Shown piece by piece: positions 10,060 through 64,000 of a stretch of 64,000 nucleotides of DNA. Position numbers and translations under genes: made by a program. Within the stretch, counting starts at the first letter, position 1, and each line of letters opens with the position of its first letter. This DNA is from Octopus vulgaris (taxonomy: Eukaryota): NCBI GenBank assembly GCA_951406725.2, contig OX597817.1, positions 5,952,001 through 6,016,000 of the forward strand. Reading direction: 5' to 3'. The notes beneath the pieces are model-generated. The model did no database searches. It had not been told where the DNA came from and saw only the letters and a program-made list of their open reading frames with translations.

Positions 10060-10213
10060 ATTTTTTGCGTAATAAGATAAAAAAAAAACCAAGGCTGTGT
10101 AGATATCAGACAATTTATAGATAGGTCTTACAGCTGTTTCTAGGATATTTATTAATTATATCCCTTCATCGGAGACGGTGTGAGAGGATAGTTAAGTCAT
10201 AATTAGTTTAGAT

Positions 10214-11490: not shown

Positions 11491-13487
11491 TTTGAAACAG
11501 TTAAGTAGCTCAGTAATAACAACACAAGCAGCAGTACCAGTATCAACAATCCGTCTACTACAACCACAACTGCTGCCATCAGCATTGACACCACCACCAC
11601 CACCACCACCACCACTACCACCACCACCACCACCACTAAATGTACTTTATCATTCTTATTTCTTTATTGCCCACACGGGGCTAAACACAGAGAGGACAAA
11701 CAAGGACAGACAAATGATTTAAGTCGATTACATCGACCCCAGTGCGTAACTGGTACTTAATTTATCGACCCCGAAAGGATGAAAGGCAAAGTCGACCTCG
11801 GCGGAATTTGAATTCAGAACGTAGTGGCAGACGAAATACCTATTTCTTTACTACCCACAAGGGGCTAAACACAGAGAGGGACAAACAAGGACAGACAAAG
11901 GGATTAAGTCGATTATATCGACCTCAGTGCGTATCTGGTACTTATTTAATCGACCCCGAAAGGATGAAAGGCAAAGTCGACCTCGGCGGAATTTGAACTC
12001 AGAACGTAGCGACAGACGAAATACCTATTTCTTTTCTACCCACAAGGGGCTAAACACAGAGGGAACAAACAAGGACAGACATAGGTATTAAGTCGATTAT
12101 ATCGACCCAGTGCGTAACTGGTATTTAATTTATCGACTCCGAAAGGATAAAAGGCAAAGTCGACCTCGGCGGAATTTGAACTCAGAACGTAGCGACAGAC
12201 GAAATACCTATTTCTTTTCTACCCACAAGGGGCTAATCACAGAGGGAACAAACAAGGACAGACATAGGTATTAAGTCGATTATATCGACCTCAGTGCGTA
12301 ACTGGTATTTAATTTATCGACTCCGAAAGGATGAAAGGCAAAGTCGACCTCGGCGGAATTTGAACTCAGAACGTAGCGACAGACGAAATACCTATTTCTT
12401 TTCTACCCACAAGGGGCTAAACACAGAGAGGGACAAACAAGGACAGACATAGGTATTAAGTCGATTATATCGACCTCAGTGCGTAACTGGTACTTATTTA
12501 ATTTATCGACTCCGAAAGGATGAAAGGCAAAGTCGACCTCGGCGGAATTTGAACTCAGAACGTAGTGGCAGACGAAATACCTATTTCTTTACTACCCACA
12601 AGGGGCTAAACACAGAGAGGGACAAACAAGGACAGACATAGGTATTAAGTCGATTATATCGACCTCAGTGCGTAACTGGTATTTAATTTATCGACTCCGA
12701 AAGGATGAAAGGCAAAGTCGACCTCGGCGGAATTTGAACTCAGAACGTAGTGGCAGACGAAATACCTATTTCTTTACTACCCACAAGGGGCTAAACACAG
12801 AGAGGGACAAACAAGGACAGACATAGGTATTAAGTCGATTATATCGACCTCAGTGCGTAACTGGTATTTAATTTATCGACTCCGAAAGGATGAAAGGCAA
12901 AGTCGACCTCGGCGGAATTTGAACACAGAACGCAGCGGCAGACGAAATACCGCTAAGCATTTCGCCCGTCGTGCTAACGTTTCTGCCAGCTCGCCGCCTT
13001 AAATGTAATAAATCATTCTGTTTAAGACTTGCCACCTTGTTTGTGTGTAGCTTTAGTAGATTTTGCTGTGCTGCAAGCATTCGGCACAAGTCATTTCCTC
13101 ATCCCAGTCACGGAAACCCTGCTATTTTCCCTCTGACAAAGCCATGATGAATCTTCATGATGAATCGTCTGCTGTTACTTTCTGAGTTCAAATTCCGCCG
13201 AGGTCGACTTTGCCTTTCATCCTTTCGGGGTCGATAAATTAAGTACCAGTTACGCACTGGGGTCGATATAATCGACTTAAATCATTTGTCTGTCCTTGTT
13301 TGTCCTCTCTGTGTTTAGCCCCGTGTGGGCAATAAAGAAATAAGAATGATAAAGTACATTTAGTGGTGGTGGTGGTGGTGGTGGTGGTGTCAATGCTGAT
13401 GGCAGCAGTTGTGGTTGTAGTAGACGGATTGTTGATACTGGTACTGCTGCTTGTGTTGTTATTACTGAGCTACTTAACTGTTTCAAA
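11491..13487. repeat. Inverted duplication: 11491-~11835 versus 13165-13487
   Basis: Unique flank, (CCA)n and the first SINE unit with its diagnostic variants all recur reverse-complemented; gives the twin ORFs MKQLSSSV... Confidence 0.9.
11657..13000 (-). mobile_element. Seven-unit tandem array of SINE family A (one head, 183-189-bp units)
   Basis: Unit boundaries at 11657, 11841, 12026, 12209, 12393, 12582 and 12767; the head occurs only at 12952-13000. Imperfect 20-bp flanking direct repeat at 11637-11656 and 13000-13019. Confidence 0.92.
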
Positions 13488-15299: not shown

Positions 15300-15882
15300 A
15301 TTCTTTCTACTGAAGGTACAAAGATTGAAATTTGGGGGAGGGGGATAGTCGATTTCAACGACTCCAGGACGCAACTGGTACTTACTTTATCGACCCCGAA
15401 AGGATGAAAGGCAAAGTCGACATCGGCGGTGTTTGAACTTAAAAACGTAAAGACAGACGAAATACCTATTTCTTTACCACCCACAAGGGGCTAAACACAT
15501 AGGGGACGAACAAGGACAGAAAAACGCATTAAGTCGATTATATCGACCCCAGTGCGTAACTGGTACTTATTTAATCGACCCCGAAAGGATGAAAGGCAAA
15601 GTCGACCTCGGTGGAATTTGAACTCAGAACGTTACGGCAGACAAAATACCTATTTCTTTACTACCCACAAGGAGCTAAACGAAGAGAGGACAAACAAGGA
15701 CAGACAAACGGATTAAGTCGATTATATCGACCTCAGTGCGTAACTGGTAATTCTTTAATCGACCCCGAAAGGATGAAAGGCAAAGTCGACCTCGGCGGAA
15801 TTTGAACTCAGAACGTAGCGGCAGACGAAATACTGCTAAGCATTTCGCCCGGCGTGCTAACGATCCTGCCAGCTCGCCGGCT
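15300..15882 (-). mobile_element. Three-unit SINE family A array with mixed 3' tails (a decayed copy follows to ~16126)
   Basis: Junction GACGAAATACC|TATTTCTTT at ~15465 and a near-identical one at ~15650; the unit at 15300 has the alternative tail. Confidence 0.88.
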
Positions 15883-28435: not shown

Positions 28436-30690
28436 AGGACGGGAAACCTTCCTGGACCTGAATGGTAGGGTGATGTTCCTGGACGTAAATGGCAGCGAAG
28501 GTGGCGCCTTTAGACTGATGGCGGTTTATGCCCCAACAGAGGGGCTGGAAGGCTAGATTTCTTCAGGCGTCCAGAAACATTCTTGGAAAGGTCTCGTACT
28601 TTAGTACTAATGGGAGACTGGAATAGTATTTCGGACGCACGGAAGGACTGTGTGGGTTTAGTACATATAGAAGTGGGTGTAAAAGCCTCGAAAACCTGCT
28701 CAGGACTTTCTAACTTTCTGACAGGTACCGACTGGATGCCCCTGATGTGCCAGTATGAACATGGAACAACCACAGCGGGTCATCCATATCGTATTTAGAT
28801 AGAGTATTAGTTAGACTAGAGGATAGGGATAACATAGGTTGTCAATAATTTAAATTGGTCGGCTACTCAGGTCACAAATTTGTGATATGCTCAGTCGATT
28901 TAGATAGGACCCGTAGACTGGGACCTGGTTACTGGAACTTGAATGCATCCTTACCGGCTCGCAAAGACTACAGGACCGTATTAGCGAACTAGTAAAGCGG
29001 CAGTTGTTGGGGGCTATCGCCAACGACCGGTGGTAGATCGCTTTGAAGAGAGCGATTAGATTAGAATCGATAGCGTTTAGCAAAGAGTTAGCAATAGAAA
29101 AAATAGATTAGAGGGAGAACTAGTTTGCAAACTAGAAGAGGTTATTAGTAAAGGCATCGTGACCGACGTGTTAGCGGCGAGAATGACGAAACACGAAGGG
29201 TGCATTGTCAGAGCTAATGCCCGTGCACTAAAACACGAAGGAACTAAAGCCATCCAATAGGCCCGAACAATAGCGACGCGACGTGGAAACAAAACCACGA
29301 TCAAGTCTTTGATGGATCAGGACGGACGCGTGTTACTCGGTTCTGAGCAGATGTATGCGACTTTCCATAGGTACTTAGTTCGGTTGTATGGAGAAGGTGA
29401 CGGTCGACGACGGTAGAGGACTTTACTTCGTACCTAGACTGTCTATTACGGCTCTCAGTAACGGACGCGAGATTCTACGAAACGCCAATTACAGCTACGG
29501 AAATACGGGATGCGATGAGCGATTGCATAAATTGCAAATCGCCCGGTCGGATGGTCTGAACTACGAATTCAATGTTTTCATGTCAGATTTGTTTGGTAGC
29601 CTCTTGGCAGATGTCTACAGTACTGACAACAGAACGGGAGAATCCCTAGTGCATTTAGGAGGGTGTAGTAACACTGCTGAGACAGGACGCTGACAATGGG
29701 GACGTGCTAATGAATGTTTGGCCCGTAACTCTGCTAAACACAGAGTTTAAGAGTGTGGTCAAGGTGTCAGCGAAACGATTGGGGCTTGTCGCTGGTGGTC
29801 TGGTCGGGGAGGCAGAAACGTGCGCAATCCCAAGCAGGCCTATCCATGACAACCGCCACTTTGAGCGAAACACAGTAGAGAGGGCTGGGACTAAAACTGG
29901 CTTTGGTGGAGGCCTGATCAAATTAGATCAGCCGAAAGCTTTCGTTAGGGTAGACCACCACTACTTGGAAGCCGTTCTTACAGTGGTTGATTTCGAACCC
30001 GTTTTCAGAGGCTGGACTGTTGCAATGCGCAGCCGCCTCTACTCGGTGGTGAAAGTAAATGGCTACATATCGGAACCTCTTTTTTACTACCCACAAGGGC
30101 TACATAGGGGACAAACAAGGACAGACAAACTGATTAAGTCGATTACATCGACCCCAGTGCATAACTGGTACTTATTTAATCGACCCCGAAAGGATGAAAG
30201 GCAAAGTCGACCTCAGCGGAATTTGAACTAAGAACGTAGCAGCAGATGAAATACCTATTTCTTTACTACCCACAAGGGGGTACACATAGAGGGGACAAAC
30301 AAGGACAGACAAACTGATTAAGTCGATTACATCGACCCCAGTGCATAACTGGTACTTATTTTAATCGACCCCGAAAGGATGAAAGGCAAAGTCGACCTCA
30401 GCGGAATTTGAACTAAGAACGTAGCAGCAGATGAAATACCGCTTAGCATTTCGCCCGGCATGATAATGTTTCTGCCAGTTCGCCGCCTTTTGGCTACATA
30501 TCGGAACCGTTTAGTATCGCACGTTCGGTCCGTCAGGGCTGCCCGCCGTCACCTCTTCTATATGTGCAGGCTCTCTAACCAATGCTGCAGAGATTGGAAC
30601 AGTTAAGAGGCCTCCCTTTCGAAACTGGACTCAAGAGGGCAGTATCTGCATATGGGGACAACGTCACCGTCATGTTGTCGGACGCATGTC
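28436..30690 (+). mobile_element. L1/Tx1-clade LINE ORF2 pseudogene (APE endonuclease + RT), truncated
   Basis: AVYAP, LMGDWN, YLDRVLVR, GPGYWNLN, KSPGSDGL, WPVTLLNTEFK, LDQPKAFVRVDH, SVRQGCPPSPLLY, AYGDNVT; many stops and frameshifts. Confidence 0.9.
30078..30490 (-). mobile_element. SINE family A dimer inserted in the Tx1 RT with an 18-bp TSD
   Basis: TSD TGGCTACATATCGGAACC at 30060-30077 and 30491-30508; two units, one head. Confidence 0.95.
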
Positions 30691-39808: not shown

Positions 39809-40651
39809 GTGTGTGTGATTGTGTATAGAAGAATATATTAATAAAAAGAATTCCAACCTTGTCTGATTTTCACGTTTTATTTACAATCTTATAATGATAT
39901 ATTATAAGATAATATATTATAATTGAATAAAATAAAATGAAATAGTAGAATGTTAAATGTTCATTCTGATTGAACTAGTACTTTCATGCATTAAATTCTG
40001 CAATCTTCGGGTTCATGTAGTAGTGTTGACAGTCATGCTTCACAATTTTTGACTGTAGCAAGATGATTGATTCTGTGCTATAAATACAGCTGGGAGAGGC
40101 TACAGAGTGCTAGGTTTTGCAAACTGTATTCTGACCAATCAGTGTGTAGTATCACTCAATTACTTAAGCTGATTGGTTGGTTGAGCTGATTAGTTTAGGC
40201 ATCACGCTTTGTTGGACATGTCAAGAGTCCTGTATCTTGACCCTGGCCGAAGCAGCAATTGTTGAGTTATTTTTAGAAATGTTGAAAATATCCTTTGTCA
40301 GAGATTTTTATATTTTTATATTTCAATTGTCATCATCATCATTGTCAGCACCTTAATTATTGTTGCTAGTGGTGATGGTGGTGACAATAGAACTTTTAAC
40401 CCTAAATAAGATAATTTTCCTGCTATCTTCATCTTGATCACCTTTAGTATTGTTGTTGTTGTTAGTGGTCATGGTCGTAGCAGTGGAAGTAATACCTCTA
40501 AGTATTATTATTATTGCTTATTTAGCTTGGGTTCGAATTTATCAATAAAATTCTTTTCTCTGATTTTCCTCTCGATTTCACTCGGGCTGTGTAATTTGTA
40601 GAATGGAAATATTATATATATTTTCCGACCACATGTTGCTAGGTGGTTACT

Positions 40652-57097: not shown

Positions 57098-57942
57098 CTA
57101 AAGCAAACACAAAGAGAGAAATGGAGTGACAGTGCTGAGCAGTGATGTATATAAATACAAATGTGTTACGGGTTCAAATATGCTTGAAGCATATTCGAAC
57201 CCCTCACCGAATTTTGGCATGTATACAATTTCTCTCTGTAGACAGATAGGCATAAACACATCGAATCATTTCGCAGCGTCCGTGGCAAGACTACTGGACG
57301 CATGCATTTCGGAGTAGTTTTCTACTCTTCAGCAACACAAAAAGGAAATGCGAACTCTGTGACCTGACACTCGAAAATTTTCCTATTATAACCACATTTA
57401 CATAAATTTTACTGGTTTCATTAGTCGGCGGCTTGTTGAAAGTAAAATATGAAGCAATAACACTAAGCAGTGATACAAACTCAGGACGTAAGAAAGTCTT
57501 TCGCTGTGTTTTGCCACGGAAAAAAGCTTTTCGCTGTAGACAAATAGTAGAAAACACGAGTCATTCCTCTCAGAAACGATGTTCTTCTGGCTGCTAGTCA
57601 TAAGAGAATTTATTACTCTTTCCTTGTCTTATGTGCCACGTGATACACAGGACATTTCCCTGACGTCCATGCATTGTATACAAGACACTTTCTCAATATT
57701 TTCAGCCCCTAGAATGAAAGGAGTGCTTGGTATTACTGAGAGCATATGAAACAAGAGTTAACTAGTAGTCTTAGAGCAAGCATAGGCGTTTAGGACGAAC
57801 TTGTGGAAGGCAAAATATCAAAAACATTTGGTCAATCTGAATTTTATGAGTCGCATTTTGTAACGCATTTACATTTCGTTGCCGCTATATAGGACGATCG
57901 AGCTTTAATCAAATGCATTCCAGATATGATCATTTCATCCTT

Positions 57943-60078: not shown

Positions 60079-60784
60079 GTGTGTGCGTGCGTGTGTGTGT
60101 TTACATCTTTCTCTCTTTCACTTTCTAACTACGTCTTTCTTTCTTTTTCTCTTTCTTTCTTTCCTTCTCTCTCTCCCTCTCTCTTTCTTTCTCTCTCTCT
60201 CTTTCTCTCTCTCTCTCTATCTATCAATCTATCTGTGTATCTGTCTGTCTGTCTTTCTGTATGTGTATGTATGTATCTATCTATCTATCTCGCTCTCTGC
60301 AGACACACACATATGTTTAGAAGTGCATATAGACTTACATACAAATATATATATATATATACACATAATAGAAATATTAAAATTACTAAGTCTCTCTAAA
60401 AGAGAACAACGGCAGCGTTCCCGGAAAATATTAGTTATCGCCATACTAATATGGCATTCTTATAAAAATAAGAATAAAGCTGACCGCTTATTAGCTCCAT
60501 GTTCAAAGGTTATATGGATACAGTTTGTGTATCAAATAGCTAACTTAAGGCGATGGCCTCATGGAGCTAATAAGCGGTCAGCTTTATTCTTATTTTTATA
60601 AGAATGCCATATTAGTATGGCGATAACTATTATTTTCCGGGAACGCTGCCGCTGTTCTCTTTTAGAGAGACTTAGTTATTTTAATATTTCTATTATTGAA
60701 AACAAGTGGATGTATTCCACCGAAACTAGGTAAATAAAACCATCGAACAGAGATTGTCGGAAGCGACACCTACTGGCTGGCTAC

Positions 60785-60826
60785 GCTGCATTGAAAAGGG
60801 GCAATACCCCGAAACGCGTCTGTAGC
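60785..60826 (+). ncRNA. Minimal type I hammerhead, U3:A8 core variant (copy 1)
   Basis: GCTGCA-TTGAAAA-GGGG-caata-CCCC-GAAA-CGCG-TC-TGTAGC; predicted cut after 60820. Confidence 0.82.
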
Positions 60827-61145
60827 TGCCGGTCAAGTAGTGTGGAGCGTCTGACCTCCTTGTTCGAAGGTTATATGGATACAGTTTGTGTATCAAATAG
60901 CTAACTTAAGGCGATGGCCTCATGGAGCTAATAAGCGGTCAGCTTTATTCTTATTTTTATAAGAATGCCATATTAGTATGGCGATAACTATTATTTTCCG
61001 GGAACGCTGCCGCTGTTCTCTTTTAGAGAGACTTAGTTATTTTAATATTTCTATTATTGAAAACAAGTGGATGTATTCCACCGAAACTAGGTAAATAAAA
61101 CCATCGAACAGAGATTGTCGGAAGCGACACCTACTGGCTGGCTAC

Positions 61146-61187
61146 GCTGCATTGAAAAGGGGCAATACCCCGAAACGCGTCTGTAGC
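61146..61187 (+). ncRNA. Minimal type I hammerhead, U3:A8 core variant (copy 2)
   Basis: Identical to copy 1, 361 nt downstream; predicted cut after 61181. Confidence 0.82.
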
Positions 61188-61643
61188 TGCCGGTCAAGTA
61201 GTGTGGAGCGTCTGACCTCCCTTGTTCGAAGGTTATATGGATACAGTTTGTGTATCAAATAGCTAACTTAAGGCGATGGCCTCATGGAGCTAATAAGCGG
61301 TCAGCTTTATTCTTATTTTTATAAGAATGCCATATTAGTATGGCGATAACTAATATATATACACATATAAGCATGTATGCATATATATTGATATATATAT
61401 AAATACATACATACGTATATATGAATATATGCACATATACACATATATATGGATACATGCATACTTGTACGTATTTTTTATGTGCACATGAATGAATAGG
61501 GAAATATATTGACTATCGCTATATTCATGTTTTCATATACATAAACGAATACATATATGCACTTACACACACACATATACTAACACAAACACACATACAT
61601 GTATCCATTTATGAATATATATATAAAGAGGGAGCTCAATAAA

Positions 61644-61689
<46 letters not shown>

Positions 61690-61907
61690 CCTGTCACAAC
61701 CTGGGACCTTAAAGACTGCTATAATGCAAGAAAGTATACTAGCCCCTTAATATTTTATATTCAATATTTCATCTATTCAATAAAACAATCAATACTTCAT
61801 TTCATTTTACTATATATACTATTTATAATATATATTCTATATTCTACATTAACATTATAAAGAATATAAACAAAACATAAAAAACAGAGTTGGAATTTCT
61901 TTGAATA

Positions 61908-62014
<107 letters not shown>

Positions 62015-62108
62015 ATTCAAATAAGAAAGCACAAAAAAACACAACAACGCGAGGACGTGGAACAAATATAGTATTATTGGACGCTCAGGAAAGAAGGAAA
62101 GAAGGAGG

Positions 62109-62143
62109 GTTTAACGTTTCGAGCGGAGCTCTTCGTCGGAAAC
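62109..62143 (-). ncRNA. Ultra-minimal hammerhead variant (35 nt)
   Basis: GTTT-CCGACGA-A-GAGC-tcc-GCTC-GAAA-CG-TT-AAAC; stem III region is the palindrome AACGTT. Confidence 0.65.
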
Positions 62144-62928
62144 ATAGGAGAAGGAAAGATCCAGAGAAGGGAAGAGAGGGGGAAAAATCGCCAACAGTAC
62201 ACACGCGGTCACATTTTGAATGTATATACATATAGATAGATAGACAGATTGATAGATGAATAGATAGACAGATAGAGAGATTGACAGATTGACAGAAAGA
62301 TAGGTAGACATTAGAATACGATTGCCTACGTATATGCGGCAACCATGGAGTTGCTAGATACCTTAAATACCTCAAGTAGCCCACTTGTAAGGTGACATCA
62401 CGAACTTTGAAAAGAAAGAAAATGTGGATGCAATATGCTCGGGGATGTGATTGGAATGAGGAAAAGTATCCGGCCGAAGAAAAGAATGTCAAAATGGAGA
62501 CGTAGAAACTGTCATCTGATATGCCGGACTCTGCCGAAGAGTCCAACACGTCAGCATGAAGGAAAGACGTAAAACGACGTGGGCATTGATGAAGATGACA
62601 AGGATGATAATGATGAGGATGATGATGATGATAATGGTGATGATGACGATGATGATGAAGTGGAAAGAGAAGTATTAGGAATTGGTGGGTAATACATAAT
62701 GTCTACGCGCATGCGCGCACATACACGTTCACCCCCCCCACACACACGTATATGAATATAGATATATTTGTTAAAAATGTACTTATCTATTGATTCACTT
62801 ATGGTCAGTCACCTAACTTCCTTCATATTGAAAGCCCAGTACCCAGGCGTCCTACACGTAGATGAATCCTGAACTGAATGCGTACATATACATATATACA
62901 CAAATACATGCCTACATATGTATATATA

Positions 62929-63240: not shown

Positions 63241-63259
63241 ATGTATATATATATAAAGC

Positions 63260-63790
63260 AAAATGTAACAAGAAAACCAAGGCTGTGTGGAATTTATATG
63301 ACATTCATAAAGAGAAAGGCAGTCTTACAGCTGTTTCTGGGATATTAGGATAAATCTATTCATCAGAGACGATATGAGAGAGTCAACTAGAGGGAAATAG
63401 TAGAGTTCAATATAAGGAGATACTTTGGAAAAGGATGGATATAAGAAGTATTAAGGGAAATAAGAGAACAAAAATAAAAGTAAAAACATATGTAGAATGT
63501 TATGGTTGCAGTACCACTTTCCTTGTGTAATACAATGCAGTTGTAATATCCTACATTCATTTTTATTTTTAGTTTTATTCTTATAGTTCCCTTAATACTT
63601 CCTATATCCATCCTCTTCCAAAATAACTCCTTATATTGAACTCTACTATTTTCCCCTCGTTAACTTTCTCATATCGTCTCTGATGAATAGATTTATCCTA
63701 ATATCCCAGAAACGGCTGTAAGAGACTACCTATCTCTTTATAAATGTGCCATAAATTCCACACCGCCTTGGCTTTGTTGTTTCCTTTTAT
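63260..63790. mobile_element. ~530-bp Penelope-like fold-back with hammerheads on both arms (63322-63370 minus; 63676-63724 plus)
   Basis: Arms ~63260-63505 and ~63544-63790; GTCT-CTGATGA...GAAA-CAGCTG-TA-AGAC with partly decayed stem II; same family as 10125-10176. Confidence 0.8.
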
Positions 63791-64000
63791 TTAACATATA
63801 CATGCTCACCCAAAACCCGCATTAGACTCCTCACTCGTATTATTATCGAACCGAGTGTCTAACTACGGTTCTCCCGTGGTATATATATATATATATATAT
63901 ATAGCCTTACCTGTCATCTTGGGTCTTCTAAATACCAATACCTCTCATATCATTACGCGCGCGCGCACACACACACACATACACACAAACACACACATAT

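Follow-up and report, generated by a model that had tools for sequence, protein, structure and literature searches.

What kind of element is a 361-bp tandem repeat that carries a hammerhead ribozyme motif in each full unit and no long reading frame, and by which machinery is it moved? The question is raised by a stretch of Octopus vulgaris DNA of 64,000 nucleotides (nt) (assembly GCA_951406725.2, contig OX597817.1, positions 5,952,001 to 6,016,000 of the forward strand; hereafter the window), in which a first-pass annotation, made from the letters alone, had proposed a retrozyme-like element at 60365..61353. The answer that we consider rather probable is a dispersed, non-coding retrozyme insertion without long terminal repeats (non-LTR), which likely has its own promoter of the small nuclear RNA (snRNA) type, is predicted to cut its own transcript and probably enters TA repeats as a copy made by the reverse transcriptase/endonuclease of a Penelope-like element (PLE). 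New with respect to the first reading are a rule that governs the ends of the insertions, the snRNA-type promoter motif and a dedicated long interspersed nuclear element (LINE).

In the window, the tandem repeat search returned an array at 60495-61356 (period 361, 2.4 copies, 99% matches) and the inverted repeat search an arm of 137 nt at 60365-60501 (98%), while six-frame translation gave no long reading frame in the unit; the layout first described, 2.4 direct non-coding units of about 361 bp plus an inverted partial unit, thus stands. The G + C content of the unit is 150/361, below 50%, and neither an LTR nor a primer-binding site or polypurine tract is present, the last two as judged by eye only. 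Most genomic units are 362-363 nt long, vs 361 in the window array, which is atypical because its inverted and direct arms differ from each other at 3 diagnostic sites, out of only 8 such differences among 479 comparisons. With unit position 1 set at the first base after the GUC of the hammerhead (window 60821), the features of the element are the following:

60365..60501, minus strand: inverted arm, unit positions 237 to 101, whose outer end is the long end (position 237)
60495..61356, plus strand: direct arm of 2.4 units that starts near position 36-43 and finishes at the short end (position 171-174)
60699..60713, plus strand: predicted element resembling a proximal sequence element (PSE), copy 1, core 60702-60708, 57-59 nt before positions 300-302, found with a U1/U2 matrix
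60740..60870, plus strand: extended stem I of hammerhead 1, a predicted fold in which positions 281-331 pair with 1-50
60759..60775, plus strand: LINE target and putative transcription start, copy 1, the 17-bp duplication site at positions 300-316, empty in the window
60785..60826, plus strand: type I hammerhead 1, with U3:A8 core and palindromic CGCG stem III, predicted cut after 60820
60821..61181, plus strand: predicted 361-nt monomer, the span between both predicted cuts
60991..61057, plus strand: both family ends, the short one at about 60991-60994 and the long one at 61057, which are putative reverse-transcription starts and enclose the 63-nt tail
61060..61074, plus strand: predicted PSE-like element, copy 2, its letters identical to copy 1
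61120..61136, plus strand: LINE target and putative start, copy 2, empty
61146..61187, plus strand: type I hammerhead 2, predicted cut after 61181

The window is one site among many. In the genome searched (2.8 Gb, 227 contigs) the exact hammerhead motif occurs in 914 copies, with 0 for the reversed control, and a looser pattern in 2,032 (control 72); among the first 100 looser matches listed, 93 belong to the family of the window array (family A) or to a sister family (family B). A similarity search with the unit, in which the best 40 of 1,206 candidates were scored, gave at least 160 matches over many contigs, full units being 97-100% identical, and the divergence between loci of 2.3% indicates young, dispersed, recently mobile copies, in line with the young repeat of the first-pass reading. 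Family B is 80-88% (about 83%) identical to family A, has the same ends and targets, and keeps its stems by compensatory changes. The idea that the array is a local satellite or was produced by the assembly, its hammerhead-like motif having arisen by chance, could draw on the differences between the two window arms and on the lack of an Rfam score for the motif (see below), but it is refuted by the hundreds of dispersed insertions with fixed ends, and the compensatory changes and the junctions from position 237 into TA found in an independent sequencing run leave it hardly tenable. Two loci (L346, L349) carry a hammerhead intermediate between A and B, a sequence pattern that suggests recombination between A and B RNAs. 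Sequencing runs labelled as seven different organisms contain at least two thirds of the words of the element, and the family or close relatives therefore occur beyond this assembly; none of the listed runs is recorded as RNA, which says nothing for or against expression. A metagenome scan for the hammerhead motif gave 0 matches. A search for cephalopod hammerhead elements in the literature, which covered neither subscription papers nor Repbase/Dfam, found nothing on this system, and the family may be catalogued in Repbase/Dfam.

How the repeat is moved can be read from the borders of its insertions. Altogether 95 were mapped; the similarity search supplied 24 of them, the initial hammerhead matches 19 and later lists 52, 40 of these last being selected by a pattern outside the hammerhead. 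One of mixed order being left out, 94 were classed: 68 are head to head, that is inverted, and 26 direct only, the latter including several with an inverted piece shorter than 24 nt and two cut by a LINE. Outer ends lie either at about position 174 (short) or at 237 (long), 63 nt of tail separating the two, and the 61 inverted insertions with both ends classable comprise 60 with one long and one short end, 1 with two long ends and 0 with two short ends. At the first 43 loci, 65/75 outer ends adjoin a TA run. For PLE insertions, a combination of tandem and inverted copies, tailed at one of the two ends, has been described (PMC8557442, PMC3846280), and in vitro the PLE tail has been located between two reverse-transcription starts (PMC11167929). 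The family thus shows the tandem plus inverted structure, the one-sided tail and the AT-rich target of PLE-mobilised sequences, and PLE-type mobilisation of the hammerhead repeat is very probable. The same one-tail rule holds for two inverted insertions (L096, L098) of a PLE family of this genome with an intact 781-aa reverse transcriptase (RT)/GIY-YIG frame. From the rule of one short and one long end we infer that priming by the PLE protein takes place at one site for one target strand and at another for the other strand, which bears on how inverted PLE insertions form. The PLE family just mentioned (L091-L101) is young. Upstream of the 781-aa frame it has a second, separate one, up to 479 aa long, for which Pfam gave no convincing match, and such a layout with two frames seems unusual for this PLE group; the name Neptune-like is given to the PLE families here because of a cysteine motif that precedes the endonuclease, and not on the basis of a tree.

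Is the unit then simply the pseudo-LTR (pLTR) of an overlooked autonomous PLE, of which the arrays are truncated copies? The first-pass annotation had asked for linkage to an RT/GIY-YIG frame. The best 150 of 6,136 GIY-YIG candidates were scored and 62 locus records around them, with at least six PLE families, were examined, and no sequence was shared between these PLEs and the unit, with the sole exception of one family B copy that sits beside a PLE. This lack of a partner tells against the explanation preferred here: no coding frame is attached to the repeat at the loci examined, and no PLE family that shares its sequence was found. Nor was a frame with RT plus GIY-YIG seen between repeats at these loci, and searches through same-strand hammerhead pairs 1-9 kb apart and through the 5′ flanks of direct-only insertions found no partner. 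The ends and the tail are indeed PLE-like, and the fraction of GIY-YIG candidates scored leaves the pLTR explanation some room, but within the arms one unit follows another, up to 5.5-7 of them, without coding sequence, five PLE protein probes against 172 locus records gave only neighbours separated by TA tracts or other sequence plus one possible chimera (L117), and the promoter looks snRNA-like; a pLTR is thus very improbable. At L117 (G000:C1:30481820-30484856, family B), the left arm is the short end of an older PLE repeat and the right the long end of B, which could reflect either one chimeric insertion or a pair of insertions combined with a deletion. A PLE N-terminal coding piece lies between its ends, and the junction is duplicated nearby.

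The hammerhead itself was correctly described. A strict descriptor run over the whole window matches at 60791 and 61152, one in each full unit, where a complete type I hammerhead is found, with its conserved core and 3-8 pair, GAAA, UH and three helices. In the first copy, GCTGCA (60785-60790) pairs with TGTAGC (60821-60826) in stem I, followed by the core TTGAAAA (60791-60797), stem II GGGG/CCCC (60798-60810), GAAA (60811-60814), CGCG (60815-60818) and GTC (60818-60820), and the second copy lies at +361. Stem I does extend beyond this (predicted fold, z -4.0 over 87 nt), but it had been described too short, as it runs on for about 50 nt. The monomer as a whole is predicted to fold better than its shuffles (z -8.1 linear, z -9.3 circular) with the ribozyme still free to fold. 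Stem III is a single A-U pair closing CGCG, and forcing it in a monomer would cost 5.6 kcal/mol, as compared with -7.5 for self-pairing of the palindrome between molecules, and cleavage is therefore predicted mainly in dimers. The U3:A8 core, which had been thought remarkable, was overrated: it is published for Schistosoma PLEs (Cercyon; PMC4209133) and was found in two PLE families of the same genome, so that the variant itself is ordinary. The proposed Rfam search returned no hammerhead match at the gathering score, nor at E up to 10. Two other candidates were set aside, an additional strict match at 57332, which looks like chance, and a second hammerhead-like fold at 60696-60737, with bulged stem I and without a strict stem II, which overlaps the PSE-like motif and is now read as promoter.

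Covariation among genomic copies, a test named by the first-pass annotation, was found: in 14 sequences (5 of family A, 9 of family B) 98.3% of the stem cells pair, and 6/39 pairs are changed on both sides between the families, including the base of stem II and the centre of the palindrome (CGCG to CATG). Two points are to be set against this. The covariation amounts to only a handful of events, because the structure comes partly from the same alignment and the sequences are related, being of two families; and in Xenopus, 1/9 hammerhead dimers were reported to cleave (bioRxiv 10.64898/2026.07.22.740005). On balance, the predicted cleavage would probably take place in vivo.

Whether the template of the PLE is a circle or a linear multimer is a question on which the internal variation of the arrays bears. 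Arms of one insertion agree at 471/479 diagnostic sites, arms of different loci being discordant at 42.5%, and of the rare letters 14 are shared by every copy at their locus, 146 are confined to a single copy and 5 occur in some copies. Since the single-copy changes are strand-symmetric, they arose later in DNA; the concordance of the arms and the all-or-one distribution of rare letters therefore indicate that arrays are born whole from one unit sequence. In 70 arms not selected by hammerhead, successive cut sites are passed in 37/70, 16/37, 6/16, 2/6 and 0/2 cases, and birth as a whole together with this even decay of length is explained by a circle or a nicked circle. The inner ends cluster at the stem's base, positions 36-51 (34 vs 5.3 expected), and among 142 single-piece arms, those with a short end stop at the predicted cut 8 times vs 1.1 expected.

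Several observations pull the other way. The arms that cross a cut site, 111/162, fit a circle and equally an uncut multimer; the long-end arms stop at the cut only once (0.9 expected), and other windows of the unit likewise collect arm stops, for which reason the stops lend cleavage a support that is moderate and indirect. At L007 a rare letter is present only in the outermost unit of both arms, and the arrays at L184, L175 and L011 are also mixed, a pattern that fits linear multimers or later conversion; the 3 sites at which the two window arms differ likewise speak against a circle as sole template. In vitro, the PLE studied did not need its hammerhead, unprocessed RNA was the main substrate and no reads ended at the cut (PMC11167929). 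These four arrays and this biochemistry are what would be expected of a non-autonomous PLE derivative copied only from linear multimers, in which the hammerhead would be weak or dispensable and the arrays would regain their length when the enzyme jumps between templates or when DNA is duplicated; L344, where a LINE fragment adjoins an inverted arm and no duplication is present (see below), likewise suggests long composite templates. We hold this explanation to be unlikely, since at L064 each of the 5-6 consecutive units in an arm has the new letters and a subfamily haplotype does not vary along its array, for which a one-unit bottleneck and re-expansion would be needed, and the 146 single-copy vs 5 partly shared changes oppose stepwise duplication in DNA; moreover, short arms stop at the cut and the core and stems are kept in two families. 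The retrozyme and rolling-copy idea of the first-pass annotation is accordingly retained in part: homogeneity and length decay fit recopying of one unit, and some arrays fit a linear multimer better; a circle or nicked circle is given a slight preference as main template.

Three further observations touch the template. Long arms stop at 194-209 more often than expected (10 vs 2.4, in a window chosen after seeing the data), which may reflect collision with a complex at the short site. Locus-fixed letters show an excess of A>G (4/13 independent vs 6/120, P 0.009) that may be RNA editing, the cases being too few to claim it. The sequencing run X4, whose nature as RNA is a guess, gave one 392-nt contig that forms a closed loop of 362 nt (362+30), a shape that a tandem transcript or DNA would also give; three other runs gave branched pieces.

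A second retroelement uses the unit as its landing site. It is a LINE of 5.35 kb with a zinc-knuckle open reading frame (ORF) 1 and an ORF2 with endonuclease, RT and zinc finger; ORF2 is free of stops and indels in 6/13 copies, and the ratios of non-synonymous to synonymous changes are 0.37-0.53. Its exact 5′-end matches lie directly after position 316 in 16/16 cases (13 loci, several unit haplotypes), and at the 3′ side 21/24 ends resume at 300/301 (20 by match, one by protein), three close relatives having their 3′ ends elsewhere, one of them near a U2 gene. An exact 17-nt duplication flanks 13/16 whole loci, including the 5′-truncated L341, and three are without it. Independent insertions at one site, with duplication and 5′-truncated copies, are thus what characterises this target-specific LINE. 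Its lineages partly follow the unit haplotype and, given also the L344 fragment, some co-copying of LINE and unit is possible. An earlier idea, that two LINE-bearing arrays were one event copied twice, was dropped after mapping of the LINE junctions. At G000:C2:73.04-73.07 Mb (L340, L265-L268, L281-L285) five near-identical LINE copies stand in tandem; at three of the junctions nothing but the 17-bp target separates them, and at one a complete unit does.

For relatives of the LINE at 78-84%, the insertion sites are the first base of U2 and, in four other hammerhead repeats (three found by scan, one by eye), points 25-35 nt ahead of the core; U2 and one of the four families harbour identical protein ends. 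The insertion site of the Tx1 LINE Keno lies inside U2. In 6/20 relatives inspected, no U2 or hammerhead target was seen. The four further hammerhead families with LINE relatives are at L354-L360 and L363-L367, and two of them have a U3:G8 core. The LINE group is large (23,974 candidates), with several families at about 78% in 5.3-kb tandems. The label Tx1 is given from domains and fixed targets only. A literature search for LINEs targeting ribozyme repeats (Tx1 with hammerhead), which left subscription papers and Repbase outside, found none; such a LINE, if true, would be a natural site-specific inserter.

The LINE site falls where transcription would start. In the octopus genome, ATCAGT lies 57-59 nt before the start of 20 U1 genes and the U2 gene, and a matrix built from U1/U2 genes alone ranked unit position 243 as 1/722 in two widths and 3/722 in the third, that is, 57-59 nt before positions 300-302 and within the spacing of a PSE (about 55-60 nt before the start). 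With the same matrix, all three widths put the matching site at the top for two B copies and for an unrelated hammerhead family. To be set against this, the matrix holds about four independent genes and the motif had been noticed by eye beforehand. In the sister LINE inserted in U2, 14 extra 5′ bases match the start of another hammerhead family at 13/14, as if, judging from these letters, its RNA began at the start of that family. An snRNA-type promoter, as predicted from these motifs, is probably carried by the hammerhead repeats, to whose transcription start the LINE would home; a 2020 review states that retrozymes seem to be without promoters (PMC7761336).

Put together, the cycle may run as follows. 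RNA polymerase II would start near 300-302, about 58 nt after the PSE-like motif. Two hammerheads are predicted to join by their CGCG palindromes and to cleave, which would set free a monomer of 361-363 nt; its ends would be held by the 50-nt stem, and it would be closed by a ligase or act as a nicked circle. As the footprints suggest, a PLE protein would nick both strands of a (TA)n target and prime one strand at 237 and the other at 174 on the same RNA species, each copy spanning a variable number of units and both being joined head to head, with partly cut linear multimers sometimes serving as templates too. Into the copies the Tx1-like LINE inserts at 300-316, a pattern directly visible in the loci, and it would thereby come under a promoter on its 5′ side and have a hammerhead cut 62 nt beyond its 3′ end. 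A wider reading, which we offer tentatively and rate somewhat below even, is parasitism in three tiers: a PLE would copy the ribozyme circle from two start sites, one per strand; the repeat would mimic an snRNA promoter; and a Tx1 LINE that targets U2 and at least five hammerhead families would home to the starts, take the promoter of the repeat and use the downstream hammerhead to end its own RNA.

Among known systems, the closest are the metazoan non-LTR retrozymes of coral, mussel and axolotl (PMC7229834, PMC7761336) and of Xenopus (bioRxiv 10.64898/2026.07.22.740005), with non-coding tandem units of 150-450 bp, a type I hammerhead, low GC, a highly self-paired monomer and PLE co-occurrence; axolotl HHR_Amex1 (PMC7229834) shares the weak palindromic helix III and cleavage as a dimer, here a prediction. 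The octopus family differs in its U3:A8 core, its head-to-head insertions with one fixed end per side, its promoter-like motif and its dedicated LINE, and circles are proven in the metazoan retrozymes, whereas this family is known from sequence alone. Endonuclease-positive PLEs (Neptune, Poseidon; PMC8557442, PMC3846280, PMC11167929) also form tandem plus inverted, 5′-truncated copies, with an optional tail at one end, AT or (TA)n targets and a hammerhead, U3:A8 included (PMC4209133); the octopus unit is without a reading frame, and its tail is 63 nt vs 30-40. Newt satellite 2 is a tandem hammerhead repeat reported to have an internal snRNA-type promoter (PMC2220036, citing Coats 1994), while the octopus motif was matched computationally to the U1/U2 upstream element and lies in a dispersed repeat with PLE-type ends. 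Tx1L, Keno and Tx1-Mar (PMC4494074, PMC4640811) share with the LINE a zinc-knuckle ORF1, an ORF2 that combines endonuclease, RT and zinc finger, insertion into a multicopy sequence at a fixed site, re-insertion in tandem and U2 as one of the targets; they differ from it in that the octopus targets are hammerhead repeats and the first base of U2. For animal retrozymes, the mobilising enzyme, the use of the circle and transcription are stated to be open (PMC7229834, PMC7761336, bioRxiv 10.64898/2026.07.22.740005), and the octopus family offers testable answers in its two exact priming sites, its predicted start and promoter, and the intact PLE proteins of the same genome.

The window contains other repeats. 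The stretch 39833-40116, minus strand, matches at 98% the 3′ repeat of another, second Neptune-like PLE family (L133) and has a hammerhead-like motif at 40010; there is also, at 62105-62145, minus strand, a minimal hammerhead-like motif in another repeat, which is found at L047 too. A long inverted repeat at 63245-63803 (arms 180 and 81 nt) has a hammerhead-like motif near 63678-63728, recognized by eye, and a related motif scores at 10172, minus strand. Also by eye, the 3′ end of another PLE-like repeat is seen beside a TA run at 61686-61910 and resembles the L058 motif. Finally, tandem arrays of a 184-185-bp unit, probably a short interspersed nuclear element (SINE), are at 11657-12951 (7.0 copies), 15347-15833 (2.6) and 30075-30440 (2.0).
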